64,000 nucleotides of DNA, taken from positions 131,796 to 195,795 of the forward strand of contig WYAZ01000031.1 of the NCBI GenBank assembly GCA_011526105.1, written 5' to 3'. A program made the position numbers and the translations under genes. Source of the DNA: Deltaproteobacteria bacterium. GTDB lineage: Bacteria; Myxococcota; Kuafuiibacteriia; Kuafuiibacteriales; Kuafuiibacteriaceae. Of the stretch, positions 2,182-21,409 are shown one piece after another (within the stretch, counting starts at the first letter, position 1; every line of letters starts with the position of its first letter). Below the pieces are notes generated by a model. That model did no database searches. It was not told the DNA's origin and saw only the letters and a program-made list of their open reading frames with translations.

Positions 2182-2218
2182 CCAGCGGACGCTACGAAGA
2201 ACCGCGCGGGCTGTCGAG

Positions 2219-5200
2219 TTAGAAGAGGGAGCCGAGCTGAAAGAACGGGCCGCTTGCGTCGATCACGTCGCGGTCTTCTCCTCCAGGGACTCGGAGGAGG
2301 TGCGCATAACCTACGCGCACCTGCAGCCCGAGCGCATGGCCCAAGAGAAGATCGGCTCTCAGTTCCGCTCCGGCGCCGATGGCGAAAGCGTCGAAGAAGC
2401 CGTCAAACAGGGTGCTGGCCTCGAGGGTCTGAAAGACACGCCCGGTGTCCGCGAACAGTGCGGCATGGAACGCGCGAATGGCGAGAGGGGCGGTCCCGAA
2501 GCCCCGCTCCACGCGCCAGATGGGCGCGCGATACTCGAGAGAAGCATGGATGACCCCGAGACCAGCCAGGATGGAGTTCTGCATCCCGCGCAGTCCGAAG
2601 AAGTTCTGAGTCGTGGTCGTGAGGGCGCTCTGGCCGGCGGCTCCGCCGAGTCGGAAGAGCTCTACGAGGTCTGGCCCGAGCCCAGCGGAGATCGAAAGAC
2701 TCGCCGCAAGGACGTGATTGGGCAGCAGCGAAGCCGGCATGCTCAAATAGCCGCGCGCGTCGCCGCCGAGCACGATCTGTTCATAGTCGCTGCCGAGGCC
2801 CTTGGAGAGCCCCGAGATCGCGAACGAGAGCTCATAGCCGCGTTCGATGGAGATCGAGTGCGCGAAGGCCCGCACGTTCGAGTAGGAGTAGCCCAGCCGT
2901 ACGCGCGCGAAGCGGCCATCCGCCGGCAGACGGGCCGCGGCCTCGTAGACGTCGTCCGGGACTTCGTTGAGCGCCGAGCGACCCTCGATCTGATACCCGA
3001 GCGAGATCAGATGGCGCCGCCGAAAAGGCAACGAGACACTCAAACTGCCCAGCAGTCGAAGTTCGGTGTAGTCGAAGAGCCGGTTTCCTTCTGTGTCGCG
3101 AAGCACGAACAAGCGGGTGTCGGCGTCGCCGCCGATGGTGAAGGTCGGCTCGAAGGCATCGTTCTGATAGATCGCGCCGCCTCCGAAGAAGTTGGTCGAG
3201 GTGCGGTAGGTGCCCCAGACGAGGTAGGTCTGGGTCTCGAGCGCGTCGCGGCCGAAGTGGCTGAGGCGGATGAAGAGCTCGGTCTCGTCCGCGCTCATCT
3301 CGGGGATCAGATTCCAGTTGTCGTTGAAGGGCAGCAGCGTGCTCTCGACCGAGTACTCGCCCATCGTCCAGCCTTCGGGCAGCTCGAACGGCGCGGGGAC
3401 CGGGTGATCCTTGAAAGGCGCCGGCGGTGGCTTTTCCGGAAGCCCGAGGGAGAGTGCGGGCCAGCGCCTGGGTTTGTCGTCGAGGCCTTCCTCCGGGAGC
3501 AAGACACGCTCGATCTGGATCCCTCGCTCCGGTTCAAAGGGCACGCGATACACGTCGAAGCCGTCCGCGGAATAGCCTCGAAACACGATGGTGCGACCGT
3601 CCGGTGAGATGGAGGGTTGATAGGCCCCGGTCATCAGGTTGGTGAGTTGGAGCAGTCGCTGGGATTCGAGTTCGAAGGCGTAGAGGTTGTAGATCCCGGT
3701 TCGGTCGGAGGCAAAGACGAGCCAGCGCCCATCCGGCGACCAGGTGGGGTCCACGTCTTGAGCGCGATCGCGCGTGATGGTCTCGACGAGCGCGCCCTCG
3801 CGGTCGTAGATCACGACGTCGCGGCGGCCGGTACGAAACCGCGAAACGGCGATGCTTCGCCCGTCCGGCGAGAAACGTGGGTTCGAGAGCTGAACGTCCG
3901 GCTCGGCGGGCACGATGACCCTTGGGTGCAAGGTGAGGCCGTCTGACCCGAGGCGCGCGAGCACCAATCGATTGGCCGCGTAGGGCGTCTGCACGAACAC
4001 GATCGAGGTTCCGCTAGGCGACACGTCCGGATCACGCGCCCTCAGAGAGCCGGAGGGAGCCAAGAATTCCTTCTCGTAGCGCTCATCGAGCCTCAAGAGC
4101 TCGGTCTCCTCCTTCTTCAGGTCATATCGCAAGAGGCTGTTATGGAAGTAGAAGCGCTGATTGATCTCGGTCTGCTGGTAGTAGAAGGCGCTTCCGTCGG
4201 GCGTAAACGACAGCGCCTTCGAGAAGGTGTCATTGACGAGCACGGTGTCGTTTCCGCCATCGAGGTCGATGCGCCGAATCCGCGGTCCGTCTTTGGGGGA
4301 GTTCGTGGAGAAGAAGATGTGCTTGCCGTCTTTGGATATCTTCGGTCCCAGCAGATCTCCGCCGTATCGGGTCAGGCGGTCGGGGATGGTCTCGGCCAAT
4401 GTTGACGAGCGAACGAGCCGCTGTGTGAGCAGCGCGTCTTCCTTCATCTCCGCTTCGAAGGTGAGCCACAAGGCCTCGAAGGTGTCGTCGAAGGCCATGA
4501 AGGCCGCCCACCAGGTGAGGTACGGGACCGGGGTCTCGGCGTAGATGCGGTGGTACCGCATCAGCGCCTCCTCTCCGAAGCGATAGGCGAGCCAGGCTTG
4601 AAACCGCCCGCCAATGAAGTACGCCACGTTCGAGAACGGCCAATACGCGTAGGCGCGATAGCCCTGGTCGATGTGTGGGAAGCGGTCCTCGAGCGCGGCG
4701 ACGCGGATGACCATGTCGGCGTACGCTGAACGTCCGCGGCCCGCGCCGGAGCTGTAGGTCTCCTCGTAGACGGCGAGCCCTTCGGACAGCCACGCGGGGG
4801 TGTACTGGTTGAGCGCGATGTACTTGCCGAAGATGAATCGGCCGATCACCGGGAGCCCAAACACCATGTCCAGATGGACGATATGTGCGAGCTCATGGTC
4901 GATGACCGAGTAGAGCCAGTCGTCGTAGTCTTCGAGTCCGGAGACCTCGGTGGGGGCGGTGACATAGATCGTGATGATCTTGTTCGGAAAGACCGTCGCC
5001 GTCCCGTTGGCAAAATCGTTCTGGTCGTCGACGACGATTGTGATGCGTCCTTGGGGCCGGTAACCGAAGCGCGCGACCATGCCTGGGAGGAGCGACTCTG
5101 CGATGGCGGCCGAGCGCAGCGCGATGTGCTCATAACCCTTCGCGTGGACCACGTAGAAGTTCGGACTGGTCACGGCGCGATAAGGCACGTCCGGGTCGTA

Positions 5201-5281
5201 GCTGCCGGCGGCCCGTCCATCCCGAGGGGCGAACGAGAGTATGAGCGCAGCGACCGCGAGGGCTTTCGAGAGATCTCTCAT
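2219..5281 (-). CDS. Large outer-membrane protein: zincin-like HExxH domain + TolB-like PD40 beta-propeller + C-terminal Omp85/surface-antigen-like beta-barrel (start re-placed to ATG 5281, MRDLSKALAVAALILSF... signal peptide)
   Basis: HELAHIVHLD metal-binding motif; repeated SPDG(R/T)... PD40 motifs; C-terminal alternating hydrophobic strands ending in ...GSLF; signal peptide at chosen start; upstream 49 codons of track ORF are Arg/Pro-rich junk. Confidence 0.6.
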   Translation of the reverse strand: MRDLSKALAVAALILSFAPRDGRAAGSYDPDVPYRAVTSPNFYVVHAKGYEHIALRSAAIAESLLPGMVARFGYRPQGRITIVVDDQNDFANGTATVFPNKIITIYVTAPTEVSGLEDYDDWLYSVIDHELAHIVHLDMVFGLPVIGRFIFGKYIALNQYTPAWLSEGLAVYEETYSSGAGRGRSAYADMVIRVAALEDRFPHIDQGYRAYAYWPFSNVAYFIGGRFQAWLAYRFGEEALMRYHRIYAETPVPYLTWWAAFMAFDDTFEALWLTFEAEMKEDALLTQRLVRSSTLAETIPDRLTRYGGDLLGPKISKDGKHIFFSTNSPKDGPRIRRIDLDGGNDTVLVNDTFSKALSFTPDGSAFYYQQTEINQRFYFHNSLLRYDLKKEETELLRLDERYEKEFLAPSGSLRARDPDVSPSGTSIVFVQTPYAANRLVLARLGSDGLTLHPRVIVPAEPDVQLSNPRFSPDGRSIAVSRFRTGRRDVVIYDREGALVETITRDRAQDVDPTWSPDGRWLVFASDRTGIYNLYAFELESQRLLQLTNLMTGAYQPSISPDGRTIVFRGYSADGFDVYRVPFEPERGIQIERVLLPEEGLDDKPRRWPALSLGLPEKPPPAPFKDHPVPAPFELPEGWTMGEYSVESTLLPFNDNWNLIPEMSADETELFIRLSHFGRDALETQTYLVWGTYRTSTNFFGGGAIYQNDAFEPTFTIGGDADTRLFVLRDTEGNRLFDYTELRLLGSLSVSLPFRRRHLISLGYQIEGRSALNEVPDDVYEAAARLPADGRFARVRLGYSYSNVRAFAHSISIERGYELSFAISGLSKGLGSDYEQIVLGGDARGYLSMPASLLPNHVLAASLSISAGLGPDLVELFRLGGAAGQSALTTTTQNFFGLRGMQNSILAGLGVIHASLEYRAPIWRVERGFGTAPLAIRAFHAALFADTGRVFQTLEASTLFDGFFDAFAIGAGAELRADLLLGHALGLQVRVGYAHLLRVPGGEDRDVIDASGPFFQLGSLF

Positions 5282-5877
5282 CGAGCTGGACGCGAGGCGG
5301 ACTGGATCTCTCGGAGGAGGCGTTCGATGTCGGGCGCGGACCCCGCGCCGGCCGCGGTGCGAAAGCGGGCATTTTGTCTCGGAGGGTCGGTCACCGCGAC
5401 ACATAGGTGCTCGGCTTCGATGACACACGCCGCCGCTTTGGCGCCGGTGAGCCGCCGGAGCTCATCGGCTACGGACTGCGTAAGGGCCTCTTGCAGCACG
5501 AGCCGGTGGGCGAGCACGTCCACCAGCTTCGCGATGTTGCCAAAGCCGGGCACCATGCCCTTCGGGAGGATCGCGACGTGCGCGTGTCCTTTCATCGGCA
5601 GAAGGTGATGCGGACACGTGGACACGAGCGGAATGTCCGCCACGAGGAGTGGTCCCGACTGCTTGGTCGCGAAAAGGCGGCCGAGCGCCTCGGTGGGATC
5701 CGCATGATGCCCCGCCGTGAGCACATCGATCCACGCCGCTGCGGCCCGAGCCGGGGTGCCAACAAAGTTCTCGTCCGCCCGGTCGACGCCCAGCGCATCG
5801 AGAAGCTCCTCTATGGCCCGCTCCGCCCTTGGCCGATCGGGGCTGGGGCGTATCTTGGATCTGGAACGCCGAGCCAC
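5278..5877 (-). CDS. folE: GTP cyclohydrolase I
   Basis: 199 aa; STCPHHLLP...HAHV motif region matching FolE active site (CEHH-type), size correct. Confidence 0.85.
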   Translation of the reverse strand: MARRSRSKIRPSPDRPRAERAIEELLDALGVDRADENFVGTPARAAAAWIDVLTAGHHADPTEALGRLFATKQSGPLLVADIPLVSTCPHHLLPMKGHAHVAILPKGMVPGFGNIAKLVDVLAHRLVLQEALTQSVADELRRLTGAKAAACVIEAEHLCVAVTDPPRQNARFRTAAGAGSAPDIERLLREIQSASRPAR

Positions 5878-6052
5878 CGACGGAGGACACCATCGCCTTT
5901 CCCCGATGAGGTCAAGGCCCTGCCGCCGCCTCCAGGAGGGCTCAGGGGCTGCAATGGCCCGATATCATCCCCAGATCCTGGTGCCTTCGAAATCCCCAGC
6001 GAGACCCGGCCGTTGACAGAGCGGGTCGCGGCCCCTACTTCAGAGACCAGGC

Positions 6053-6718
6053 TTGGAAAGAAACCGCGTGAAACCCAACCAGCCTCACACTCCCTCCAGC
6101 ACTCCCCCCACCGTGCTTCGCTACGCCGAAGCGGTGGTTCCGACCATCCACGGGGATGTTCGATTGGTGGTCTTCAGGGAGCGCGGCTCCGAGGATCCCC
6201 ACGCCATCGAGCACGTCGCGATGGTCTTCGGCGAACCCGCCAAAGCCTCCGGCGCCGTCCTCGCGCGCGTCCACAGCGAGTGCATCACTTCGGAGGTCTT
6301 TGGCTCACTCAAGTGCGACTGCCGGGACCAGCTCCTCGAGGCGATCATTCGCATCCAAGAGGTTGGCCACGGCGTCATCTGCTACCTCCGCCAAGAGGGA
6401 CGGGGCATTGGGCTGGGAAACAAGATCCGCGCCTATGCACTGCAAGCTCAAGGGCTCGACACCATCGAGGCCAACCTTCACCTCGGCTTCGACGTCGATC
6501 TTCGGCGTTACGATGTTGCGGCGGACATGCTGAAGGACTTGGGGGTGCGAGCGGTCCGGCTGCTCACCAACAACCCGGAGAAGCTCGCCGGGCTTGCGGA
6601 AGCCGGGATTCAGGTCGTCGGGCGCGAGTCGATTGAGATCGAGCCCAATCGGCACTCCGAGAGCTATCTGTCCACCAAGCAGAAGCTCATGGGGCATCTC
6701 CTGGCGCTCGCTTCTTGA
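6053..6718 (+). CDS. ribA: GTP cyclohydrolase II
   Basis: 221 aa; RVHSECITSEVFGSLKCDCRDQL zinc-site motif, YLRQEGRGIGL, KIRAYALQ motifs typical of RibA. Confidence 0.85.
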   Translation: MERNRVKPNQPHTPSSTPPTVLRYAEAVVPTIHGDVRLVVFRERGSEDPHAIEHVAMVFGEPAKASGAVLARVHSECITSEVFGSLKCDCRDQLLEAIIRIQEVGHGVICYLRQEGRGIGLGNKIRAYALQAQGLDTIEANLHLGFDVDLRRYDVAADMLKDLGVRAVRLLTNNPEKLAGLAEAGIQVVGRESIEIEPNRHSESYLSTKQKLMGHLLALAS

Positions 6719-6726
6719 GTCTGGTC

Positions 6727-7446
6727 TCAGGCCTGGCCCGAACCCACACCCCAGCCCGGTATCGCGCCGCTGTCGTCCTCGCCGCCCCCTTGCTGCAAGA
6801 GCAGCGCGCCGAGCACGCCGTTGACGATTTCGATGCGCTTCGCTGGATCGGGCTCAGCGAGGATGCGTCGTCGGTCGTCCGGTTCTTGAACCGCCGCCAC
6901 CGCGATGGTGTCGGCCAAGACTCCGGCTTCGTCGATCTCGTTGATGCGCGAGAGCAGCTCTTCGTTGCCATCCCCGAGACTCACCACCACCCGCGTGCAG
7001 AGGCTCCTCAGGCCCGACATGGCGCGTGAGAGCTCCGGTGCGGAGGTTTCGGTGTGGTCGAGGATGAGCTCCGTCTTCACCCGACGGTAGGGGATGTCGA
7101 GCTGTGGCTGGAACTCCTCCACGACGCGCAAGCGACCGCAGCCCGCGATGAGCAGATCGAAGCGTCCGTCCGGGTAGCGTGTGGACCTCTGGATGAGACC
7201 GAGGCCGGCGTGGTCGAAGATCGAAGGCCGCCCGTGTGCATCCGGCGGCAGGCGCTCGTCGAGTGCCCCGAGCGCGATGAGCTCATGACCTTCGAGCGCG
7301 TCCTCGACCATTCGGCGATACCGGGGTTCGAAGATGTGAATGGGAAGGTACACGCCAGGGAGCAGCAGGATGTTCGACAGCGGAAAGAGCGGGACAGCAT
7401 TCAAGGCCTCGACCGGCACCGCGCGGTAGGTATCACTCACGGACAC
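6727..7446 (-). CDS. LON N-terminal (substrate-binding) domain protein
   Basis: 239 aa; PLFPLSNILLLPGVYLPIHIFEPRYRRMV is the Lon N-domain signature; no ATPase/protease domain. Confidence 0.7.
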   Translation of the reverse strand: MSVSDTYRAVPVEALNAVPLFPLSNILLLPGVYLPIHIFEPRYRRMVEDALEGHELIALGALDERLPPDAHGRPSIFDHAGLGLIQRSTRYPDGRFDLLIAGCGRLRVVEEFQPQLDIPYRRVKTELILDHTETSAPELSRAMSGLRSLCTRVVVSLGDGNEELLSRINEIDEAGVLADTIAVAAVQEPDDRRRILAEPDPAKRIEIVNGVLGALLLQQGGGEDDSGAIPGWGVGSGQA

Positions 7447-8842
7447 CTCGAGACGGGAAGATCTTTCCGGGGTTCAAGATGCCGGCCGGATCAAACACCT
7501 TCTTCACGTTCTTCTGGAGCGCGATCAGCGGCTCGGAGTGCTCGAGGGAGAGGAACTCGCGCTTGGTGAGCCCGACCCCATGCTCGCCGGAGATCGTTCC
7601 GCCCAAAGAGACGGTGAGGCTCATGATCTCGTGCACGGCCTGGTCCGCGCGCTCCTGTGCGTCTTCGTCGAACAAGATGTTCACGTGCAGGTTGCCGTCT
7701 CCGGCGTGCCCATAGGTGGCGAGCCCGAGCTTGTGCTTCTCTCCAATTCGCTTCGCGCCGTCGAGCATGGCGGGGATCCTTGAGCGAGGCACGACGATGT
7801 CTTCAGAGATCTTGCGCGGCGCAGTTTCGGAGAGCGTGACGGACAGCATGCGGCGTGGTTCCCACATCTTCTCGCGCTGCGCCGCGTCTTGGGCGACGAG
7901 CACGTCGATGGCGCCGTGCTCGGTGCACACGAGGGCGGCGCGTTCGAGATCCTCCATGCTTCGTTCGACGCTCGTTCCGTCTGTCTCCAGAATCAAGAGT
8001 GCGCCTGCATTCTCGGGGAAGCGCCCAGGGGTTTTCTCCCGCAGCGCCCCCAGGGCGTAGTCGTCGAGGAACTCGAGCGTCCGCGGGATCACACCGGCGG
8101 CGAAGATGGCGGTGATGGCGGACCCAGCCCGGCCGAGATCAGGAAAGCTGACGAGCGCGGTGGTCACCGCGGCCGGATTCGGGATGAGCCGGGTGGTGAT
8201 CTCCGTGATGACGCCGAGTGTTCCCTCGGAGCCGACCATCAGGGCGGTGAGGTCGTAGCCGGTGACGTGCTTCAGAGTACCCTTGCCGAAACGAAGGACC
8301 TCGCCGGTGGGGATGACCACCTCGACCGCCAGCACGTAGTTCTTGGTGACGCCGTACTTGAGCGCACGAGGTCCGCCCGCGTTGCAGGCCACGTTGCCGC
8401 CGAGGGAGCAGATCTTCAGGCTGTTTGGATCCGGCGGATAGAACAGACCTTCGGCCTCGACGTTCCGCATGAAGGTCTCGGTGATGATGCCGGGCTCGGC
8501 GACCGCAATCATGTCGGTCTTCGAGACGTCCTTCATCCGGGTCATGCGCTCCATCGACAGAACGATGCCACCCTGCACCGGCACCGATCCGCCCGACTTG
8601 CCGGTGCCGAGCCCACGCGGCGTGACCGGGACGCCATGTGCGGTCGCGGCGCGAAAGACCGCTTGAACGTCCGCGACGCCTTCGGCGCGCACGACGAGGT
8701 CGGGCATGGAGGGGGTCGAGAACGACCAGTCCTGGCCATAAGGGCTGAAGAGGTCGGGATCATCGATGAGCTTCGAGGGTCCGAGCGCGGCGGCGAGCAT
8801 TCGTTTGCAGGCGTCGATGGAGGCTGAAGACGGCCGGTTCAT
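7433..8842 (-). CDS. FAD-linked oxidase (GlcD / D-lactate dehydrogenase family); start re-placed to ATG 8842 (MNRPSSASIDACKRML...)
   Basis: FAD_binding_4 motifs (RGLGTGKSGGSVP..., C-terminal GGTISGEHGVGLTKREFL); overlaps neighbours by 4 and 14 bp (operon). Confidence 0.8.
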   Translation of the reverse strand: MNRPSSASIDACKRMLAAALGPSKLIDDPDLFSPYGQDWSFSTPSMPDLVVRAEGVADVQAVFRAATAHGVPVTPRGLGTGKSGGSVPVQGGIVLSMERMTRMKDVSKTDMIAVAEPGIITETFMRNVEAEGLFYPPDPNSLKICSLGGNVACNAGGPRALKYGVTKNYVLAVEVVIPTGEVLRFGKGTLKHVTGYDLTALMVGSEGTLGVITEITTRLIPNPAAVTTALVSFPDLGRAGSAITAIFAAGVIPRTLEFLDDYALGALREKTPGRFPENAGALLILETDGTSVERSMEDLERAALVCTEHGAIDVLVAQDAAQREKMWEPRRMLSVTLSETAPRKISEDIVVPRSRIPAMLDGAKRIGEKHKLGLATYGHAGDGNLHVNILFDEDAQERADQAVHEIMSLTVSLGGTISGEHGVGLTKREFLSLEHSEPLIALQKNVKKVFDPAGILNPGKIFPSRGVRE

Positions 8843-9189
8843 CGGGCGTGCTTCCTGCCGCCGCGCGGAAGCTGCAGGATCTCGAGGCCCGAGGTCGCCT
8901 GCACCTGACATGCACGACCCACGATCGACTCCCCGGCTGCGTCCGCGCGGTATTCCATCTCACAGCAGCCCTTGGTGTTGTTCCAACAGTAGCGCCCCCA
9001 GTCCATTCGGACCGAGTTCTCTTTCAATTCGAGATACTGCAGGCACCGGAGGACGCTGTTGTTCTCGGGGACATAGGCCGGCTCGCCCTCCACCCAGATC
9101 GGGAGGAGCATCTGATAGGCGCCGTAGAGGTTCAGGTCATCCGAACTATGGGTTCCGGAAAAAGGGATGGGTTCTCGCTTCTCGGTCAT
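8839..9189 (-). CDS. Small Cys-containing hypothetical protein (116 aa) from ATG 9189 (MTEKREPIPFSG...)
   Basis: ORF with CWNNTKGCCEMEY Cys cluster; begins immediately after stop of upstream cytochrome gene and overlaps downstream oxidase start by 4 bp; no family recognised. Confidence 0.4.
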   Translation of the reverse strand: MTEKREPIPFSGTHSSDDLNLYGAYQMLLPIWVEGEPAYVPENNSVLRCLQYLELKENSVRMDWGRYCWNNTKGCCEMEYRADAAGESIVGRACQVQATSGLEILQLPRGGRKHAR

Positions 9190-9190
9190 C

Positions 9191-10066
9191 CTACTCTTGG
9201 TCAGCCCAGGTGCGCTCAGTCTCTTCGCGATCGTACATGGTCGCGCTCTCCATGGCCACGAGGTAGACCGGGAACACATCGGCCGCGAGGTCCGACATCA
9301 CCTTGCCGCCGGCCACCTTGAAGGGGTCCTTCTGGCCTTTGCGCCCGAGTCCGGCGAATCGGGAGAGCGACTTGTTCAGAAGCTCGGTCTTCTGATCGAC
9401 CTCGTGGACCGCGAGCTTGGTGATGACGCCGTCCTTGTCCATGGCGATGCCGAGCTCGCCTTCGAATCCAGGCGTCTTCCAGGGCACAAAGACGAGGTAG
9501 CCGCTCTTCTTGTCCTTCTTGAGCTCGTCGAGACGGATGGGATCATCGGGGACGTAGCTGAGGTTTCCTTCTTCGCCTTCGAAGTCAAAGAAGGTGAAGA
9601 CGGCGGCCTTGGTCTGCTTCGCGGCTTTCCCGGTGGCGGCCTTGATGCGTTCGAGACCGAACTTGTCGATCGCGTACTCCTTGGCCACGTAGCGAGAGGC
9701 ATCTGGGAAGAAGGTTTGAATCACGAGGTGCTGCCCCCGCACGTGCTGCACCACGTCCCAGAGCTGAAGGAACGGGAGCTGCCTTTTGAACTGATGCTCA
9801 CTCGGCTTCTTCAGCCCCTTGCCGGTCTCGATCATGTCGAAGAGCTGCTCGTTGCGGAGGAGGTTGAGGCGCCCGGAGTCGCGGAGCGAGACCGCGATCT
9901 TGCCGCCATCGGCCTGTGCGCCATGGCAGGCCGCGCACTCCTTGGCGTAGAGCTTCTGACCGCTGGCAGGGTCACCCACAAGGAGCGGAAGCTCCTCTGC
10001 GATGGCGAGAGAGCTGAAGAGGAGCATTGGAAGGAGAGCGGGTAGCGCGAGCTTCATCTCGATCAC
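9191..10066 (-). CDS. c-type cytochrome (mono-haem CxxCH) with signal peptide
   Basis: 291 aa; N-terminal signal MIEMKLALPALLPMLLFSSLAIA, class-I cytochrome c motif KECAACHG; long C-terminal extension. Confidence 0.7.
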   Translation of the reverse strand: MIEMKLALPALLPMLLFSSLAIAEELPLLVGDPASGQKLYAKECAACHGAQADGGKIAVSLRDSGRLNLLRNEQLFDMIETGKGLKKPSEHQFKRQLPFLQLWDVVQHVRGQHLVIQTFFPDASRYVAKEYAIDKFGLERIKAATGKAAKQTKAAVFTFFDFEGEEGNLSYVPDDPIRLDELKKDKKSGYLVFVPWKTPGFEGELGIAMDKDGVITKLAVHEVDQKTELLNKSLSRFAGLGRKGQKDPFKVAGGKVMSDLAADVFPVYLVAMESATMYDREETERTWADQE

Positions 10067-10067
10067 C

Positions 10068-10658
10068 TCAGTTGCCCTTCACCGGGCGGCGTCCACCGCC
10101 GGTGGTCTTGGTTTTCTCGCTCATCATGTCATCCGGGAGCGGCCAGATGTTCACCGGGAAACGCATGGTCCCTTCGAAGGTCTTTCCTTCTCGGATGCGA
10201 CCCTTGATGGTGAGCCCGAGCATGCCGTCCTGCGGCGGGGTGATGTGCAGGCCGAACTTCCCGGCAGACATCGGGATCTCGTGCGCGAGGTACCGGGCTA
10301 CGACATCTCCGACCGGGTTTTTGAGCTCCACCACGACTCGGGCGCCGGTCACGGGGACCGCGGTGCCGTAGCGAGGGTGCGGCGTCTTCGGCACTTCGTT
10401 GATGGTCAGGATCAGCTCTGTTCGTTCCTCGGCGTTCGGCACGCCCGGCGCGAAGCGGGCGCTGATGTCGAACTTGCTCCCCTTGGAGCCCTCGACCTGC
10501 AGTGTGTCGCCGCGTTCGAGCGGGCGTGGCAGAGGCTTGGGCGTGGGCACCGGCTCTGCGGCTGGAGCTGGAGCAGGTTCCTGCGCGTGGGTCGTGCTGA
10601 CGAACAGGGTGGTGATGAGCCAGGCGGAGAGCAACGAAGAGAGGGAGAGCTTATTCAC
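10068..10658 (-). CDS. Secreted hypothetical protein
   Basis: 196 aa; cleavable signal peptide (…TLFVSTTHAQE); Pro-rich linker; no recognisable family; 2-bp spacing to cytochrome gene. Confidence 0.5.
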   Translation of the reverse strand: MNKLSLSSLLSAWLITTLFVSTTHAQEPAPAPAAEPVPTPKPLPRPLERGDTLQVEGSKGSKFDISARFAPGVPNAEERTELILTINEVPKTPHPRYGTAVPVTGARVVVELKNPVGDVVARYLAHEIPMSAGKFGLHITPPQDGMLGLTIKGRIREGKTFEGTMRFPVNIWPLPDDMMSEKTKTTGGGRRPVKGN

Positions 10659-11589
10659 AGCGGCCTCGTTCCTTTTCGATGTCGAGGTGGAAGTCGATCA
10701 TGTCTTTGGTGCGGGGGAGGCCGAAGCGGCGTCCGTCGATGAAGACCGTGGGCGTGGATTCGATCTGAGCGCTCAGTCCGAGCTGCTTGTCCGCCTGCAC
10801 CTTCGCCCTGTGGGTTCGGGCGTCGAGCGCAGCTTTGGCCTTCTTCGTGTCCATGCCCGCCTTCGCGGCGAAGTCGATCATCGTCTCCGGGCGGATGTCC
10901 CGCTGGTTCTCGAAAAGAAGCTCCGCGAGCTCCCAGAACTTGCCTTGGAGTCTAGCCTCCTCGGCGAGCTCCGCTGCGAGATGGGAGGGCTCGTCACTCG
11001 ACCCGAGCGGGAATGCGAAGAACACGAGGCGCGTGTCTGTTCGTCCGGCGATGGTCCGGTCGAGGACCGGCTTCATGGCTCGGCAGTGCGCGCAGCGGAA
11101 GTCGGCAAACTCGACGATGGTGTGTTGTGCCGTCTCTGGTCCGATCGATGCGTGATCCTTCACATCGAAGCTACGAACCGCCGAGCTGTAGCCTTCCGCG
11201 AAGCCTTCGAGCAGCGTGAGTTCGACTTCCTCGGTGGAGACGCCGGATCGGTAGAGATCGAGGATGAGGTGCGTCATCTTCTCGGAGCATCCGACGCAGG
11301 AGCAGGCCTCTTTGTTCGAGAGGCAGGAAGCGAGGGTGCGCGGGCAGCCGCAGTAGCAGAAGGTCTCGTTCATGATCCGCCAGAAATCGAGGCGGACCGC
11401 ACCCGGAAGGCTGTCGGCCGAGACGCCTTCGATCTCCGTGATCGCGGGTGCTTGCACCGCGGCTTCCGGTGGGGCTGGGTTCTCCTCGAGCGGCTTCGGG
11501 CTGGGAGCGGTCTCCGTCTTGCCCCGACAGGTCGCACCCGTCGCCGCGAGGGCCGTCAGGAGCACGAAGAGGGCGGGGTGGGTGCGCAT
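10651..11589 (-). CDS. DsbA-family thiol:disulfide oxidoreductase with N-terminal Cys-rich domain (start re-placed to ATG 11589, MRTHPALFVLL...)
   Basis: Thioredoxin-fold CxxC (FRCAHCRAM) with DsbA-like surrounding sequence; extra FCYCGCPRTLASCLSNKEACSCVGC cluster; signal/lipoprotein-like N-terminus. Confidence 0.7.
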   Translation of the reverse strand: MRTHPALFVLLTALAATGATCRGKTETAPSPKPLEENPAPPEAAVQAPAITEIEGVSADSLPGAVRLDFWRIMNETFCYCGCPRTLASCLSNKEACSCVGCSEKMTHLILDLYRSGVSTEEVELTLLEGFAEGYSSAVRSFDVKDHASIGPETAQHTIVEFADFRCAHCRAMKPVLDRTIAGRTDTRLVFFAFPLGSSDEPSHLAAELAEEARLQGKFWELAELLFENQRDIRPETMIDFAAKAGMDTKKAKAALDARTHRAKVQADKQLGLSAQIESTPTVFIDGRRFGLPRTKDMIDFHLDIEKERGRCE

Positions 11590-11743
11590 TCCGGCGACAC
11601 TGCTAGCCATTGGGCGAGAAGGCGGTCAATCACGGATCTCACGTACTTAGGGTTTGTACGCGCAGATCTGGGCATGTCCAGGGGGTGCCTGCTTGTGGCT
11701 TGAGGACTAGGGTTCCAGTAGGATCCGAGGTCGACCGGCCTAG

Positions 11744-12697
11744 ATGCAAGACGAGCAAGAACAGAACTTCGCGAGCTTCGAGGACGGAGACTATGTCGAG
11801 AACACCACGGAAGCAGTGGGATTCGTTCCGCTCGAGCCGCTGGAGTCCGCGAAGCGAACCGCCGCCTTTGTCGTGATCAGCGGGCGGGCCTTCGGTCAGA
11901 GTTTCACCCTCGGTGACAGCGAATGCACCATCGGGCGCGGGATGGAGTGCAACATCCGCCTCGATGACGAAGGCATTTCGCGCCGCCATGTGAAGGTCGT
12001 CCACACCGAAGGCCACTGGGTCATGATGGATCTGGCCTCCACCAACGGGACCTATCACGGCGGCGAACGCATCCAGGTCATGACGCTCTATGACGGTGCG
12101 AAGGTTCAGCTCGGCATGAGCACCGTCCTGCGGTTTCAGCATCAAGACGTCATGGACGAGCGATTCGTCCGGTCAATGTACGAGTCCAAGACGCGCGACG
12201 CGCTCACCGAGACTTACAATAAGGCTTACTTCCTCGAGTCGATCGAGCGCGAAGTCGCTTTCGCGCTTCGGCATCAGCAAGACCTGACCTTGGTCATGTT
12301 CGATCTCGATCACTTCAAGAAGGTCAACGATACCTTCGGGCACCAAGCGGGCGACTTGACCCTGAAGATGGTCGCGAAGGCGGTGACGAAGTGCATTCGC
12401 CGCGAGGATATCCTCGCCCGCTACGGCGGTGAGGAGTTCGCGCTGCTGCTTCGGAACACGCACCCGGAGAAGGGCTTCATCCTCGCGGAGCGTATCCGAC
12501 GGGCGGTCGAGCGGCTCGAGATCGTTCACGAAGGCCGACGGATACCTTGCACCGTGTCCTTGGGCATCGAATCCACGCTCAACGGCTTTCGAGAAGCGGG
12601 CACTTTGATCGAGGCCGCCGATTCGCAGCTCTATCGCGCCAAGCATGGGGGTCGAAACCGCACCGAAGCACCGCTCTTCGAAGAGGGCGATCGTTAG
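11744..12697 (+). CDS. FHA domain - GGDEF diguanylate cyclase (GGEEF active-site motif)
   Basis: 317 aa; FHA signature (GR...RRHV...NGT) then GGDEF domain with RYGGEEF and DxLT motifs. Confidence 0.85.
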   Translation: MQDEQEQNFASFEDGDYVENTTEAVGFVPLEPLESAKRTAAFVVISGRAFGQSFTLGDSECTIGRGMECNIRLDDEGISRRHVKVVHTEGHWVMMDLASTNGTYHGGERIQVMTLYDGAKVQLGMSTVLRFQHQDVMDERFVRSMYESKTRDALTETYNKAYFLESIEREVAFALRHQQDLTLVMFDLDHFKKVNDTFGHQAGDLTLKMVAKAVTKCIRREDILARYGGEEFALLLRNTHPEKGFILAERIRRAVERLEIVHEGRRIPCTVSLGIESTLNGFREAGTLIEAADSQLYRAKHGGRNRTEAPLFEEGDR

Positions 12698-12858
12698 AGC
12701 TCATCTCAAAACCCCCGACCGAGCGAGACGGCCAAGACGCGAGGCCCGCAAGGCGGGCCGACGAATGCGCTATCCTGCGATAACGCGAGGAGGCCCAGCA
12801 CGGCGGGCCGACGCGGATCGGCCGGAATCGCGACCGAGGGGGTTTTGAGATAAGCTCT
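12698..12858. repeat. 161-bp structured intergenic element: 19-nt terminal inverted repeats (12698-12716 AGCTCATCTCAAAACCCCC / 12838-12856 GGGGGTTTTGAGATAAGCT, 18/19) enclosing two GC hairpin-containing ~23-nt direct repeats (12741-12763, 12789-12812)
   Basis: Read directly: arms are reverse complements; inner GAGGCCCGCAAGGCGGGCCGACG and GAGGCCCAGCACGGCGGGCCGACG each form a GC stem; GACCGAG abuts both arms internally. Confidence 0.55.
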
Positions 12859-12899
12859 AGAGGCGTTCGAGGCCATCACACGCCAGAGCGCACCCCGCC

Positions 12900-14636
12900 G
12901 TGATCTCGATTCGCACTGATTCCGGGGAAGAGCAGCTCACGCTCGCGGAGTTCGAAGCCCGCGTCCGATCCGGCCGCATCGTGGCCACCACTCAGGTCTG
13001 CTTCTCAATTCTCACCGGCGATCGTTGGGTCGACGCGAAGGAGATAGAGCTCTTCCGGCAGCTCTACCAGCCGGCACGCATCTACTTCACGCGGCGCTTC
13101 TCCCTTCGCGGCTTTCCACTCGTGACTGCGCTTCTCGTTGTTCTTCAGATCCTGCTGTTCTTCGGTGTGGCGGGGGCCCGGCACGCGGTCGATCTCGACC
13201 CGCTCATCGCCTCCGGCGCCAAAGTACGTTCGAACATCCTCGAACTCGGAGAGACATGGCGGCTCCTCACCGCGAATCTGCTCCACCGGGACCTCCTGCA
13301 TCTGTTCTTCAACATGTTCTTTTTCCTCAACGTCGGAGGCACGGTCGAGGCGGCCTACCGCAGACAGGATTACGTGCTCCTGCTCGTGCTCAGCGGGCTG
13401 TCCACGACGGTGGTGTCCACCCTGTTTGGCTCCCTGCCTTCGGTGGGCGCGAGCGGCGTGGTCTTGGGGCTGTTCGGCGCGGTCTCTGTGTTCGGCTACA
13501 AGTACGCGGATGTTCTTCCGCGTCGATACAAGAACTTCTTCCTCTTCGCGGTCCTGCCGTATGCGATCTTCGTTCTCTACATCGGGATCTTCACCGCAGA
13601 CACGGACAACTGGGGTCATCTCGGCGGACTCCTCGGTGGCTCCATGGTTGCGGTTCTGCTCGAGCCCAAGCTGATGCACCTCGCTCGGGCGGAGAAGCGG
13701 TACTTCCGCGCCCACTGGCCAGCGCTCGCCACGGTGTGTCTGGTGGGACTCACGCTCGCCGCGGGTCCGGTGGTCCGAGGCCTGGAGCCTCGCCTCGCCA
13801 TCCTGTCGGATGGCGACAGTGGACTTCTCGTGGCCTATCCATCGGGTTGGCGCTTCGGAGAGAACCACCTGGGCTATCCGGCCTGGGGCAACACGCTCGG
13901 CGTCACCTTTGGCGTGCGGGCCCGACGCCACTCAAACGCGCCGGTGTCACTGTCGGAACTGAGGCGTCTCTTTATCGAAGAGGAGCTCGCCGGCCCTGAA
14001 CGCGCCGGCGAGATCACGGGTGTCGAGCTGGTTCGGGAGCGCGCGGTGCGAATCGAAGGGGCTCGAGCGCTCGAACTCACCGTTGCCCTCGAGTCCCGCG
14101 CGGGGCGCCATCGGAGCACAAACCTTCTGCTCGCCCGCGGCTACTACAGCTACTTCATCGTGGCCTCCGCCCCGGTGGCTTGGGCGGAGTCGTACGAGCC
14201 CATGCTTCGAGGGCTCGTGGATCGTGCCCGGCTCATCGATACAAATCGGCTGACGCGAAGCCGCGAGCTCGTACGTGCGTTTCCGGGCATGTCGAGCGCG
14301 CGGGTGGAGCTTGCGGGTGAGCTTGCGCAACTGGGTCGCGTCGAGGAGGCTCGGTCCGCCTATCTGGAGGCGCTCGAAACCTTGCCCGAACATCCAGACG
14401 CGCTCTACGGCTTGGCTCGACTCGCTCGCGACTACGGAGGTGATGTCGAAGAAGCCGAGGCGTTGGCCACTCGGCTCCTCGAACGCAGGCCCGAGAGCCC
14501 GGAGGTCGCCGTGCTGGTGGCGGACCTGCGCGCTCGGCTCGGTCAGTTTGCGCGCGCCCGAGCCGTGCTCGAGGAGGCTCTCGAACGCTCGCCGGACTCC
14601 GCCGAGCTCCGGCAGCGTCTATCGACTCTCCGCTGA
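12900..14636 (+). CDS. Rhomboid-family intramembrane serine protease fused to C-terminal TPR repeats (GTG start)
   Basis: 578 aa; 6-7 TM core with GASGVVLGLFGA (GxSG catalytic Ser) and downstream His in TM helix; C-terminal Ala/Leu-rich TPR-like repeats. Confidence 0.75.
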   Translation: MISIRTDSGEEQLTLAEFEARVRSGRIVATTQVCFSILTGDRWVDAKEIELFRQLYQPARIYFTRRFSLRGFPLVTALLVVLQILLFFGVAGARHAVDLDPLIASGAKVRSNILELGETWRLLTANLLHRDLLHLFFNMFFFLNVGGTVEAAYRRQDYVLLLVLSGLSTTVVSTLFGSLPSVGASGVVLGLFGAVSVFGYKYADVLPRRYKNFFLFAVLPYAIFVLYIGIFTADTDNWGHLGGLLGGSMVAVLLEPKLMHLARAEKRYFRAHWPALATVCLVGLTLAAGPVVRGLEPRLAILSDGDSGLLVAYPSGWRFGENHLGYPAWGNTLGVTFGVRARRHSNAPVSLSELRRLFIEEELAGPERAGEITGVELVRERAVRIEGARALELTVALESRAGRHRSTNLLLARGYYSYFIVASAPVAWAESYEPMLRGLVDRARLIDTNRLTRSRELVRAFPGMSSARVELAGELAQLGRVEEARSAYLEALETLPEHPDALYGLARLARDYGGDVEEAEALATRLLERRPESPEVAVLVADLRARLGQFARARAVLEEALERSPDSAELRQRLSTLR

Positions 14637-14641
14637 GTGGC

Positions 14642-15640
14642 TCATTTCGACGGGTCGGTGGGGCGCTCGGGCGGGATCGAGACCCGAAGCGTGTCGAGTT
14701 CGTCTCCGCGCTTGGGATGAGCATGGGATGAGCCCGCTTGGAACGCAGTGGCCCGGTCTCGACCCGCGAGCTTGCTGTGATAGAGCGCGGAGTCGGCTCG
14801 AACAAAGAGCTCCATGGGGCCCGCGTCCGGGTTGTCGACCTCCAGCTCGGCGACCCCAATGCTGAAGCTCAGCGTATGACGCCGGTCGTTCACGGTGATC
14901 GGATGATTCCGGACGCTCTCGACGATGCGCTGCGCGAACCTGAGCACGAGATCGATAGACTCCCCACGGCAGATGATCACGAACTCGTCGCCCGCGTAGC
15001 GAGCGACCACGTCCTCTCTGCGCTTGGCACGTTCGAGCAGGCGAGCGACGCTCTTCAGGACCTCGTCCCCGACCGGGTGACCGTAAGTGTCGTTGATCGA
15101 CTTGAAGCCGTCGACGTCGATGAGCATGAGGGCCAGCGGCGTCTTGTGCCGACGGGAAAAAGAGATCTCCTGATCGAGCCGCTGCATCAGGTACCGCCGG
15201 TTGGCGAGCTCGGTGAGCGGGTCGCTCATGGCAGCCATGCGCATCTGGTGAATCAGCTCGGTCTCGTTCACGTCCTCGAAGCGCACTCGGATCACGGTCT
15301 CACCCGAGAGTTGAATCCGCTGACCGTCTTGCAGACCTGAGACCTGGCGGGCTTGGCCCTCGACGTACATGCCATAGCCAGAGTCGAGGTCTCGAATCCG
15401 ATAGCCGCCCTCTGGATTACGTTCGATCACGGCGTGACGTCGCGACATGTACGGATCGCGGATCCGGAAATGCGATGCCTCTCCGCGTCCGACCGTCCCC
15501 CCGCTGGGCGGCACGCGATAGTAAAGGCCAGCGTCTGGTCCGGTCAGGACCATGATGGACAACACGTTGCGTTCGGGCAGCGCGGAGGGGCCGTCGTTGC
15601 TCGAGAAGGTGTCTTCATCGTCGAGGTAGCCCAAGGGCAC
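14642..15640 (-). CDS. FHA domain - GGDEF-like protein with degenerate AGDEF motif (paralogue of 11744..12697)
   Basis: 332 aa; FHA signature, GGDEF fold with RYAGDEF instead of GG(D/E)EF; I-site-like RxxD context present. Confidence 0.8.
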   Translation of the reverse strand: MPLGYLDDEDTFSSNDGPSALPERNVLSIMVLTGPDAGLYYRVPPSGGTVGRGEASHFRIRDPYMSRRHAVIERNPEGGYRIRDLDSGYGMYVEGQARQVSGLQDGQRIQLSGETVIRVRFEDVNETELIHQMRMAAMSDPLTELANRRYLMQRLDQEISFSRRHKTPLALMLIDVDGFKSINDTYGHPVGDEVLKSVARLLERAKRREDVVARYAGDEFVIICRGESIDLVLRFAQRIVESVRNHPITVNDRRHTLSFSIGVAELEVDNPDAGPMELFVRADSALYHSKLAGRDRATAFQAGSSHAHPKRGDELDTLRVSIPPERPTDPSK

Positions 15641-19530: not shown

Positions 19531-21213
19531 CTAGAGGTCGTCGCCCTCGAACAGGAGCGGCTTTGATCGAGGTTGGAGCTTGGGCTGTGGCTCGGGCTCG
19601 GGTGGCTCTGCGGGCGGGACAGGTGAGGCCACACGCCGCTTCGGGCCAGGCCGGATCCTCGTCGGCTTTCTGGGGCGCGCCGGCTCTCGAATCTCAGCCT
19701 CCTTGGGCGGCGCCTTCTCTGCGTCGGTCGTGGGCGCTGCCCCGACCTCCACTGGCGCCTCCACCTCCATTGGCGCCTCCACCTCCATTGGCGGCTCCAC
19801 CTCCGCCTCCACCTCCAAGGGTACATCCCGCGGTGGTGCCGGCGTGACCTCGACCGGTTCTGGCTTCGAGAGGAAAGCGAAGAGAGCCAAAGCGAAGATC
19901 AGGACGGCGGCCGCAGCCAGAGGCAGACGAGACTTCCCAGGTACGCGGTTCGATGCCGGGCGGATGAGGGTTCGCACATCCGTATCCTGAACCGCGCTGT
20001 TCCTCGTCCGATTCGGGGGGACGGTTCCGAGGAGCGCCTTCTTTACTTCGGTCGGGGATGGGTCGGGCCGATCGAGCTCCGGAAGCTCGAGGGTGTCGGC
20101 CTCGACCTCGGGCGGAAGGCCCTCGGCCTGGGCCGTGGGTATGGCGCCTCTCGGTCTCGAGGTCGAAGGTTGCTGACGCGCGAGCAGCGCCGCGAGCTGC
20201 TCGCGCGGCGCGCCCGTGAGCGCGAGTCTTGCCACCTCGGCGCGAATCTCGAGGGTGTCCGCGAAGACCGACTTCATGAGCTTCTCGATGGGCGCGGGGG
20301 TGACCCGAGAGCCCTGGCTCATCAGGAAGTCACGCAGCTCGTCGCCGAGCGCTCGCGCGGTGGGGTGTCGGTGCGTGGGGTCTCGCTGCAGGGCCTTCAT
20401 CACGATCGCCTCGAGCCCCAGCGGGTAACCTTCCACCCGCGTGCTTGGTCTCGGCACCGCGAGCTCGAGGACTCGCGTGAGCGTATCGAGCTCGCGTTTG
20501 GCCTTGAAGAGACGCTGACCGACGGTGCTCTCCCACAAGACGATGCCTAAGGCGAAGACGTCTACCCGTCGATCGAGCATGCCCTGCGCGCGAATTTGCT
20601 CGGGCGCCATATAGGGCAGCGTGCCTCGCCAGACTCCGGGCCGGGTGTTCTTGAGCTGATCGATCGCCTTGGCGATGCCGAAGTCCATGAGCCGGACCAC
20701 GCCGTCGTAGCCCACCATGATGTTCTGGGGTGCGACATCGCGGTGGACGACCTCGAGTGAGGCTCCATCCCGGTCCTTGAGTTCATGCGCGGCGTGAAGC
20801 CCTTCGCAACACTGCAGAATGATCTGAAGCGTCACGTCGATCGGGAGGGGGCGCCCCGCGTTCCATGTGTGTTGCAGGAGACGCGAGAGCGTCTCACCAC
20901 TCACGTAGTCCATGCTCAGGTAGTAGCAGCCATCCTCGATGCCAACATCCGAGATCGCCACCACGCTCGGATGATGAATGCGTGACGCGATGCGGGCTTC
21001 GTTCAAGAAGAGGTCGATGAACTTCGTCTCTCCGCTGAGGTGTTCGTGGATCATCTTGACAGCGAACAAGCGGTGGAATCCGCCGAGACCGGCGACGCGC
21101 GCGAGGTGGACCTTGGCGGTGGCGCCGTGACCGAGCTCGGCGAGGAGCTCATAGCGTCCCACCTTGTCGGGGCTGGACCCACCGGGGCGGGACGTGGCGA
21201 GCTCGGGGGTCAT
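19531..21213 (-). CDS. Hanks-type Ser/Thr protein kinase with Pro-rich juxtamembrane region, one TM helix and repetitive acidic C-terminal tail
   Basis: 560 aa; GxGxxAxV...AVK, HRDVAPQN catalytic loop, DFG, APE motifs; TM LPLAAAAVLIFALALFAFL; tail PMEVEAPMEVEAPVEV repeats. Confidence 0.9.
   Translation of the reverse strand: MTPELATSRPGGSSPDKVGRYELLAELGHGATAKVHLARVAGLGGFHRLFAVKMIHEHLSGETKFIDLFLNEARIASRIHHPSVVAISDVGIEDGCYYLSMDYVSGETLSRLLQHTWNAGRPLPIDVTLQIILQCCEGLHAAHELKDRDGASLEVVHRDVAPQNIMVGYDGVVRLMDFGIAKAIDQLKNTRPGVWRGTLPYMAPEQIRAQGMLDRRVDVFALGIVLWESTVGQRLFKAKRELDTLTRVLELAVPRPSTRVEGYPLGLEAIVMKALQRDPTHRHPTARALGDELRDFLMSQGSRVTPAPIEKLMKSVFADTLEIRAEVARLALTGAPREQLAALLARQQPSTSRPRGAIPTAQAEGLPPEVEADTLELPELDRPDPSPTEVKKALLGTVPPNRTRNSAVQDTDVRTLIRPASNRVPGKSRLPLAAAAVLIFALALFAFLSKPEPVEVTPAPPRDVPLEVEAEVEPPMEVEAPMEVEAPVEVGAAPTTDAEKAPPKEAEIREPARPRKPTRIRPGPKRRVASPVPPAEPPEPEPQPKLQPRSKPLLFEGDDL
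19735..19812 (-). repeat. Tandem ~18-bp coding repeats (CGCCTCCACCTCCATTGG units) in kinase tail
   Basis: Read directly: ctccactggcgcctccacctccattggcgcctccacctccattggcggctccacctcc. Confidence 0.6.
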
Positions 21214-21409
21214 GGAAGGAGCGCTCGAGCCGAAGCGTAGCGAAGCCCGTCCGATCGCGCGAGGGCTTCGCCCTTTCGGCTCGCGTGGAACCCCCGAGCC
21301 TGTCCGGTCAACTTGTCGCGCGGTCGAGCAGCCTGTCTCAGTGTGCGCCGAAGGTCCCTCATTTCAGGCACGTAGCTGGGCTGGCCCACTGCGTGCAGTG
21401 GATGTGGGC

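Follow-up and report, generated by a model that had tools for sequence, protein, structure and literature searches.

A probable miniature inverted-repeat element with IS5-family-type ends on the stop codon of an FHA-GGDEF gene in an uncultured member of the Myxococcota

Introduction

What is the compact inverted-repeat sequence that lies between a gene for an FHA-GGDEF diguanylate cyclase and a gene for a rhomboid protease in this genome, and what is it doing on a stop codon? The initial annotation of the window (the whole 64-kb stretch of DNA analyzed here) had offered three readings: a transposable element of the miniature inverted-repeat kind (MITE), a REP-type palindromic unit, or a structured RNA in the 3′ untranslated region. 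The first appears to be the best explanation. We put at roughly three in four the probability that the sequence is a noncoding, nonautonomous MITE with 20-bp terminal repeats of the type seen in the IS427 group of the IS5 family, flanked by TA on both sides and located on the stop codon of the upstream gene. It is most likely ordinary selfish DNA and not a new RNA or regulatory system.

Structure of the element

The features of the locus, in window coordinates, are as follows.

11744 to 12697, plus strand: FHA-GGDEF diguanylate cyclase gene (ORF; Pfam FHA, 2e−15; GGDEF, 1e−45)
12695 to 12697, plus strand: TAG stop codon of the FHA-GGDEF gene, whose bases coincide with the TA flank and the element's first base
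12695 to 12696, no strand: left TA flank, a putative target site duplication or invariant flanking dinucleotide (sequence)
12695 to 12797, no strand: stretch of which the organism or community appears to contain more than one copy (contig ends at k = 31)
12697 to 12716, plus strand: left terminal inverted repeat, GAGCTCATCTCAAAACCCCC (19/20 to the terminus of the L026 insertion sequence described below)
12717 to 12723, plus strand: subterminal GACCGAG, a direct copy of 12832 to 12838 and a symmetric internal loop in the predicted hairpin
12737 to 12763, plus strand: internal module 1, ACGCGAGG followed by a GGCCCGC-AAG-GCGGGCC hairpin and then GACG (repeat analysis)
12767 to 12788 (approximate), no strand: central short stem-loop, GCGCTATCCTGCGATAACGCG, the apex of the long hairpin in minimum-free-energy structures
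12783 to 12813, plus strand: internal module 2, ACGCGAGGAGGCCCAGCACGGCGGGCCGACG, which repeats module 1 in direct orientation apart from small indels (spacing, 50)
12832 to 12838, plus strand: second subterminal GACCGAG (sequence)
12838 to 12857, minus strand: right terminal inverted repeat, reverse complement GAGCTTATCTCAAAACCCCC
12858 to 12859, no strand: right TA flank (sequence)
12860 to 12899, plus strand: 40-nt spacer before the rhomboid start, not homologous to what relatives carry in this place
12900 to 14636, plus strand: rhomboid protease gene with C-terminal TPR repeats (ORF; Pfam)

The rhomboid gene is bracketed by two FHA-GGDEF genes, the second being a paralogue of 332 amino acids (14642 to 15640, minus strand) that is convergent to it.

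The element is delimited by a 22-nt inverted repeat, TAGAGCTCATCTCAAAACCCCC at 12695 to 12716 and GGGGGTTTTGAGATAAGCTCTA at 12838 to 12859, in which 21 of 22 positions pair across an intervening 121 nt. The initial annotation had reported 19-nt arms (AGCTCATCTCAAAACCCCC, 12698 to 12716; GGGGGTTTTGAGATAAGCT, 12838 to 12856) with 18/19 complementarity, which was confirmed. It had also placed the start of the element just after the TAG codon; this boundary had to be moved, as the repeat is 3 nt longer on each side and takes in the TAG at 12695 to 12697. Without the TA, the arms match at 19 of 20 positions and enclose an element of 161 bp (12697 to 12857), or 165 bp with the TA flanks included. 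When up to three mismatches were allowed, the 22-mer was found only at the two arms in the 64 kb and in none of 100 shuffles, and no comparable inverted repeat was identified elsewhere in the window.

Both of the GC-rich hairpin modules described earlier (12741 to 12763 and 12790 to 12813) are present and, as direct repeats, reach further than first reported, with the arrangement ACGCGAGG...GACG identifiable at 12737 to 12763 and again at 12783 to 12813. The GACCGAG motifs at the inner edges of the two arms (12717 to 12723 and 12832 to 12838) were likewise found as described. The longest exact internal repeat or inverted match in the element is 14 nt.

Folding, which had been proposed as a check, was carried out on the whole element (∼165 to 176 nt) and predicted a single long hairpin with a free energy of −106.9 kcal/mol on the plus strand and −107.0 kcal/mol on the minus strand. 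Shuffled sequences folded at about −66 to −69 kcal/mol (z = −9.0 and −9.6 for the plus and minus strands, respectively; 0/200 as stable). The predicted structures contain 58 pairs on the plus strand (1 G-U) and 63 on the minus strand (5 G-U). Because the two strands fold equally well, these predictions point to a palindrome at the DNA level rather than a strand-specific RNA.

Several known types of structured sequence were considered. In Rfam 15, nothing matched except a hairpin model for a plant microRNA, which scored 21.6 bits where the gathering score is 268 (E value, 0.38). Myxobacterial msDNAs form hairpins of ∼160 nt, but no Rfam retron msr match was found within 12000 to 13500, and the neighboring genes do not encode reverse transcriptases. 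An intrinsic terminator was also rejected: a consensus scan of 12400 to 13100 returned no terminator-like sites, and the stem is followed by GAGGCGTTCG, with no T-tract, in agreement with the absence of a T-tract reported from the first inspection. The same type of scan identified no σ70-like promoter in 12400 to 13100.

The coding capacity of the element is limited to short frame-spanning ORFs without homologues. Neither the six-frame translations of the element nor a minus-strand ORF of ∼56 to 57 amino acids had a match among 5.8 billion predicted proteins, and no gene with the exact product of that ORF is on record. One phase is open across the entire element in both orientations. The FHA-GGDEF frame stays open past the TAG for 51 codons through the element (12698 to 12853), until a TAA at 12851 to 12853; if the stop codon were read through, the FHA-GGDEF protein would gain a tail of 51 amino acids.

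Terminal repeats shared with an IS5-family insertion sequence

The terminal-repeat pattern AGCTNATCTCAAAACCCCC was scanned in GTDB representative genomes and JGI metagenomes, and a slightly shorter pattern was used for IMG/VR. Eleven single-arm loci were recovered (four from representative genomes, four from JGI metagenomes, and three from IMG/VR), ten of which lay within coding regions or other sequence with no relation to the element and were attributed to chance. In the eleventh, the soil metagenome contig Ga0070704_100546858 (here L026), the motif lies exactly at the end of an insertion sequence (IS). This IS is 859 bp in length (L026 17 to 875), carries inverted repeats at its ends, and contains a single ORF of 252 amino acids that encodes an IS5-family transposase (NF033580, 204.5 bits with a cutoff of 110; PF13340, 2.6e−22; PF01609, 4.5e−16).

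The termini, read from the outside inwards with a slash at the element boundary, compare as follows.

Window, left: TA/GAGCTCATCTCAAAACCCCC, also written TA/GAGCTCATCTC...
Window, right: TA/GAGCTTATCTCAAAACCCCC, also written TA/GAGCTTATCTC...
L026, right: TA/GAGCTGATCTCAAAACCCCC
L026, left: TA/GAAGGGGTCTCAAAACCC

The right end of the L026 IS is identical to each window arm at 19 of 20 positions, and its sole mismatch falls at the position where the two window arms differ from each other. The 121-nt interior of the window element contains no transposase remnant and has no similarity to the L026 IS.

Among plasmid records, the annotated genes most closely related to that for the L026 transposase belong to the IS5 family and come from Deinococcus (45 to 48% identity) and Leptospira (45% identity). 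Because more distant relatives (32 to 33% identity) are annotated as IS427, ISSfl7, ISEhe2, and ISSoc13, the transposase was grouped in the IS427 subgroup of IS5. An IS from Leptospira weilii (L049; 863 bp) has TA/GAACCCATCTCAAAAA at both ends, and the end of an IS from Deinococcus taeanensis reads TA/GAGGCGATCCGGAAA. Copies of the Leptospira IS in differing contexts have exactly [T]TA...TA[A] in common, and the element boundary in this clade was therefore set at TA/GA. All eight termini that were compared (from the window, L026, L049, and the Deinococcus relative L051) have the form NTA/GAR, and in seven of the eight the TA is preceded by Y (C or T). The ends of the window element begin with GA/GAG, like those of IS with this group of transposases.

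The L026 IS (flanks at L026 1 to 16 and 876 to 891) is located at the central TA of a perfect 30-nt palindrome, TAACAAAAGGTACT-TA-AGTACCTTTTGTTA, and the Deinococcus relative has inverted ACGAGGG on both flanks (L051 327 to 335 and 1170 to 1178). Judging from these flanks, members of the clade may prefer a TA at the center of palindromes, or the actual terminal repeats may extend beyond the limits set here.

With IS427-group-type terminal repeats, a TA flank, and no transposase, the element falls within the definition of a MITE: its size lies in the range of about 50 to 600 bp, it does not code for a transposase, it has terminal inverted repeats, and it shares its ends with an autonomous IS.

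The insertion site

TA is present on both sides of the element and, being palindromic, can also be read as a 2-bp extension of the inverted repeat. The dinucleotide is depleted in the window (65% GC), with an observed/expected ratio of 0.37; the 64 kb holds only 37 YTAR tetranucleotides and 7 TTAG. The location of the insertion on a stop codon may be attributed to this scarcity of TA targets, among which stop codons are prominent. In the scenario we favor, the TAG of the FHA-GGDEF gene would have been the target and would have been regenerated by the insertion. Removal of the element together with one TA gives ...GATCGTTAGAGGCG..., and the TAG stop is preserved either way; the sequence expected for an empty site with a single TA is ...GATCGTTAGAGGCGTTCG....

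Locus history in related genomes

The names carried by homologous proteins, from MAGs labeled "Deltaproteobacteria bacterium" or "Myxococcota bacterium," put the organism among uncultured Myxococcota. Four related loci were compared, in which the FHA-GGDEF protein is 94% (L027), 67% (L032), or 64% (L036 and L037) identical to that of the window. All four have the same gene order: a DsbA-like gene, the FHA-GGDEF gene (plus strand), a gene for a Cys-rich secreted protein (minus strand), and the rhomboid gene (plus strand). The Cys-rich protein is ∼390 to 415 amino acids in length and has no Pfam hit. The interval from the FHA-GGDEF gene to the rhomboid gene spans L027 4958 to 6289, L032 4936 to 6412, L036 5037 to 6395, and L037 3292 to 4533, and no trace of the element was found in any of these loci.

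DNA homology between the relatives and the window ends at the end of the FHA-GGDEF gene and resumes at the rhomboid start codon. Given these limits, the window lineage has lost ∼1.3 kb comprising the Cys-rich gene and a divergent promoter region, and the place of that segment is now occupied by the element (165 bp) and the 40-nt spacer. As the neighborhood differs by a whole gene, the relatives offer no clean empty site. On this comparison, the element is a derived, lineage-specific insertion rather than a conserved regulatory structure, and the MITE would have entered the very lineage from which the Cys-rich gene and the upstream region of the rhomboid gene were lost.

Some smaller observations were made at the locus. 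A possible remnant of the 3′ end of the Cys-rich gene, ∼15 nt in length (GAGGC...ACACGCC), was found at 12860 to 12885. The gene of 406 amino acids at this site in the sister lineage was considered as a transposase candidate and rejected; it encodes the Cys-rich secreted protein, has no Pfam hit, and lacks terminal repeats. A 20/21-nt match, CGGCCGGAATCGC[G]ACCGAGG, is shared between window positions 12819 to 12839 and L027 4906 to 4925, the latter lying where the GGDEF coding sequence of the sister lineage has its 3′ end (GRNR motif). This match (E value, 0.014, in a tiny database) is probably due to chance in GC-rich sequence, although a local origin of part of the interior would be conceivable on the strength of it.

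These comparisons bear on whether the structure could have evolved locally, as a single-copy palindromic 3′ untranslated region or a U-less terminator with no mobile origin. A very stable hairpin immediately after a stop codon, between two genes on the same strand, is what such an origin might leave behind. Against this, no T-tract or terminator-like site was found, and the strands are equally stable. The structure is also absent from every relative examined, including the lineage with the 94% identical FHA-GGDEF protein, and a 19/20 match to a real IS terminus that extends to the TA is not expected from local evolution. We therefore regard a purely local origin as very improbable. The suggestion of a structured RNA in the initial annotation is not supported, in view of much the same findings: it has no Rfam family, both strands fold alike, and it is missing from all related loci examined.

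Searches for further copies

No second or diverged copy of the arms or of the internal module was identified in the 64-kb window. By way of Logan contigs that carry the acetate kinase and radical-SAM genes, the search was taken ∼15 kb past the window ends, and neither a further copy nor a contig ending in the terminal repeat was found there. Paired-arm matches were absent from the GTDB representatives, JGI metagenomes, and IMG/VR, and BLASTN of the element against PLSDB plasmids and phage genomes returned only short GC-rich chance matches. As the scanned collections did not yield the locus of the window itself either, these results say little about copy number in the genome; the source organism is probably absent from those collections. 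No IS5-family transposase was identified in the window or the fetched flanks, and nothing specific was found in the literature on the terminal-repeat sequence or on MITEs in Myxococcota.

The second reading in the initial annotation, a REP-type unit, can be weighed against these counts. A REP or REPIN element mobilized by a RAYT (IS200/IS605-like Y1) transposase would account for an intergenic long hairpin built of smaller GC-rich palindromes. The two GC-rich modules are direct rather than inverted repeats, however, and the termini are inverted repeats of the DDE-IS type with a TA flank. REPs usually occur every few kilobases to tens of kilobases, but the element is present once, and its module nowhere else, in 64 kb. 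A REP-type origin is accordingly the least credible of the readings considered and can be given hardly any weight.

Repetition in assembly graphs

Logan contigs derive from k = 31 de Bruijn assemblies (Cuttlefish2 and Minia3) in which no 31-mer occurs twice within an accession and from which contigs of ≤150 bp are dropped (PMC12424806). Because each 31-mer occurs once per accession, a unique flank that enters a repeat should end 30 nt inside that repeat. The sole exact repeat of ≥30 nt in the window (22019 to 22049 and 22166 to 22196) provided a control: Logan contig L015 ends at 22048, the repeat start plus 29. This 31-nt direct repeat, GGCGAGACGCCTCCGGGCGAAGGCGGCGAGA, is located inside a repeat-containing ORF (21164 to 22552).

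At least 23 Logan contigs, drawn from numerous SRA runs, encode the exact FHA-GGDEF protein. Eight of the ten listed contigs end at 12723 or 12724, 29 to 30 nt into the element, and the other two are short and end earlier; a further contig, reached via the acetate kinase gene, also ends at about 12723/12724. From the other side, the exact rhomboid protein occurs on 11 Logan contigs, and among the eight listed, seven have their start at 12768 and the remaining one at 12797. None of the Logan contigs listed spans the element. By the arithmetic of the control, the repeat would start at 12695 (12694 in some samples), which is the outer edge of the TA plus terminal repeat, and would run to 12797 (12826 in one sample). 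A shared unitig of 103 nt would go unreported, since Logan drops contigs of ≤150 bp.

The internal palindrome was considered as a cause of the breaks and rejected: with no exact inverted match of more than 14 nt, far below k = 31, it cannot itself break the graph. In one sample, a clean contig of 84 kb runs up to the element, which speaks against strain heterogeneity in general. It is most economical to suppose that the same organism or community contains at least one additional copy with 12695 to 12797 in common.

Two strain types can be told apart among the Logan contigs that encode the identical FHA-GGDEF protein (L005, L007, and L008 versus L006 and L009 to L014). Across about 1744 to 12724 of the window, these types differ in the DsbA-like protein (319 versus 312 amino acids) and in a cytochrome c (278 versus 288 amino acids). 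Both carry the left end of the element, and the 1-nt difference between contig ends at 12723 and 12724 does not track strain type.

The breaks might instead reflect allelic variation in a quasi-palindrome made hypervariable, for example, by template-switch correction or by gain and loss of modules, in which case the element could be single copy. Quasi-palindromes are mutation hot spots, and a 43-nt block (12725 to 12767) that contains module 1 lies between the contig ends at 12724 and 12768. Yet it would then be a coincidence that 12724 minus 29 is the exact outer edge of the inverted repeat. The clean 84-kb contig indicates a population that is otherwise clonal, and the SPAdes-like graph simplification of Minia3 would presumably remove a bubble of ∼100 nt under normal circumstances. 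Because it makes the match to the repeat edge a coincidence, allelic variation was weighted below an extra copy, and we think it rather unlikely. A further, rather unlikely possibility is that samples differ in their break points (12723 versus 12724; 12768 versus 12797) because transposition is still going on or because the number of modules varies.

The graphs also help to separate a MITE from a one-off IS remnant, in which a full-length IS5-family element would have lost its interior in situ and its ends would have fused to leave a single-copy, nonpropagating sequence. The terminal repeats do match those of an IS, a second copy was not observed directly, and the locus clearly underwent a deletion, that of the Cys-rich gene. 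Against such a remnant, the 121-nt interior resembles neither the L026 IS nor any transposase gene, and direct hairpin modules within an overall palindrome are typical of amplified MITEs. Furthermore, more than 20 independent k = 31 assemblies break as if 12695 to 12797 were repeated, with the start exactly at the edge of the terminal repeat. A remnant of this kind therefore seems unlikely. The MITE reading of the initial annotation is supported by the IS5-family-type termini, the TA on both sides, and assembly graphs that behave as they do at a repeat.

Proposed mobilization and possible effects on neighboring genes

A multicopy status, a duplication of TA, a partner transposase, and any effect at the RNA level are inferred. 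In the mechanism that we propose, a DDE transposase of the IS427 group, encoded elsewhere in the genome, would bind the GAGCTYATCTCAAAACCCCC ends, cut the element out or copy it, and insert it at a TA inside a YTAR-like site. The interior is made up of the two direct GC-rich hairpin modules arranged around the central stem-loop, so that the element as a whole is a quasi-palindrome. If cotranscribed as the 3′ end of the FHA-GGDEF mRNA, the element could form an RNA hairpin of ∼80 bp. Such a hairpin could protect or process the 3′ end, serve as a target for an RNase specific for double strands, or lower the read-through into the rhomboid gene. As the rhomboid gene no longer has its ancestral upstream region, it may rely on read-through or on an unrecognized promoter in the last 40 to 200 nt.

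A stronger version, that the rhomboid gene is now expressed only by read-through across the ∼80-bp hairpin and that the hairpin acts as a processing or attenuation site, is doubtful. If true, it would represent a new kind of coupling between c-di-GMP signaling and rhomboid expression. Should the hairpin simply modulate read-through into the rhomboid gene, it would add one more case of a MITE rewiring the expression of its neighbor, a phenomenon that is already well documented.

For annotation, the value of the analysis is that the sequence can be labeled as an IS5/IS427-type MITE in an uncultured member of the Myxococcota and need not be treated as a novel terminator, a small RNA, or a riboswitch. 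The locus offers an example of a TA-targeting element that, in a GC-rich and TA-poor genome, ends up exactly on a stop codon. Elements of this kind fragment k = 31 assemblies systematically, and their detection from contig ends may therefore be possible.

Comparison with known elements

The closest known system is the IS427 group of the IS5 family, represented by the L026 and L049 IS and, more distantly, by IS427, ISSfl7, and ISSoc13. The shared form of the ends is GAR-NNN-ATCTCAAAA(CCC), with TA outside. In contrast to the IS of this group, which are ∼860 bp in length, the window element is 161 bp, carries no transposase gene, and has an unrelated interior. Having no transposase gene of its own, it could move only with a transposase supplied from elsewhere in the genome.

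Like REP and REPIN sequences, the element is intergenic, rich in GC hairpins, and able to form a long hairpin. The features that characterize REPINs, namely inverted pairs of REPs, abundance, and the lack of DDE-type terminal repeats or a TA flank, were not seen in it.

Among eukaryotes, the Tourist-type MITEs and the PIF/Harbinger superfamily include nonautonomous derivatives of IS5-related transposases that prefer TA-containing targets, with a 3-bp TAA or TTA duplication. The window element is probably likewise nonautonomous, IS5 related, and located at a TA-containing target, but the hosts of Tourist-type MITEs are eukaryotic and the sequences are unrelated.

The Correia (CREE) elements of Neisseria are about 100 to 155 bp in length, with terminal repeats of ∼26 bp and a TA flank, and form a long hairpin when transcribed. 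They often adjoin genes, altering mRNA processing, and carry promoter and IHF-site features. The window element resembles them in being TA flanked and hairpin forming. It differs in that there is no sequence relationship, the host belongs to another phylum, and the promoter and IHF features were not found.

BrickBuilt and related MITEs of Porphyromonas gingivalis have terminal repeats that match those of IS5-family IS (PMC4596501). BrickBuilt contains an array of 23-nt minisatellites, has ends of the GAGACCTTTGCA type, and has been documented in about 19 copies (PMC4596501). As in BrickBuilt (PMC4596501), the ends of the window element are of the IS5-family type, no transposase remnant is present, and the interior holds direct repeats; unlike BrickBuilt, the element has only two hairpin modules, and its ends are different.
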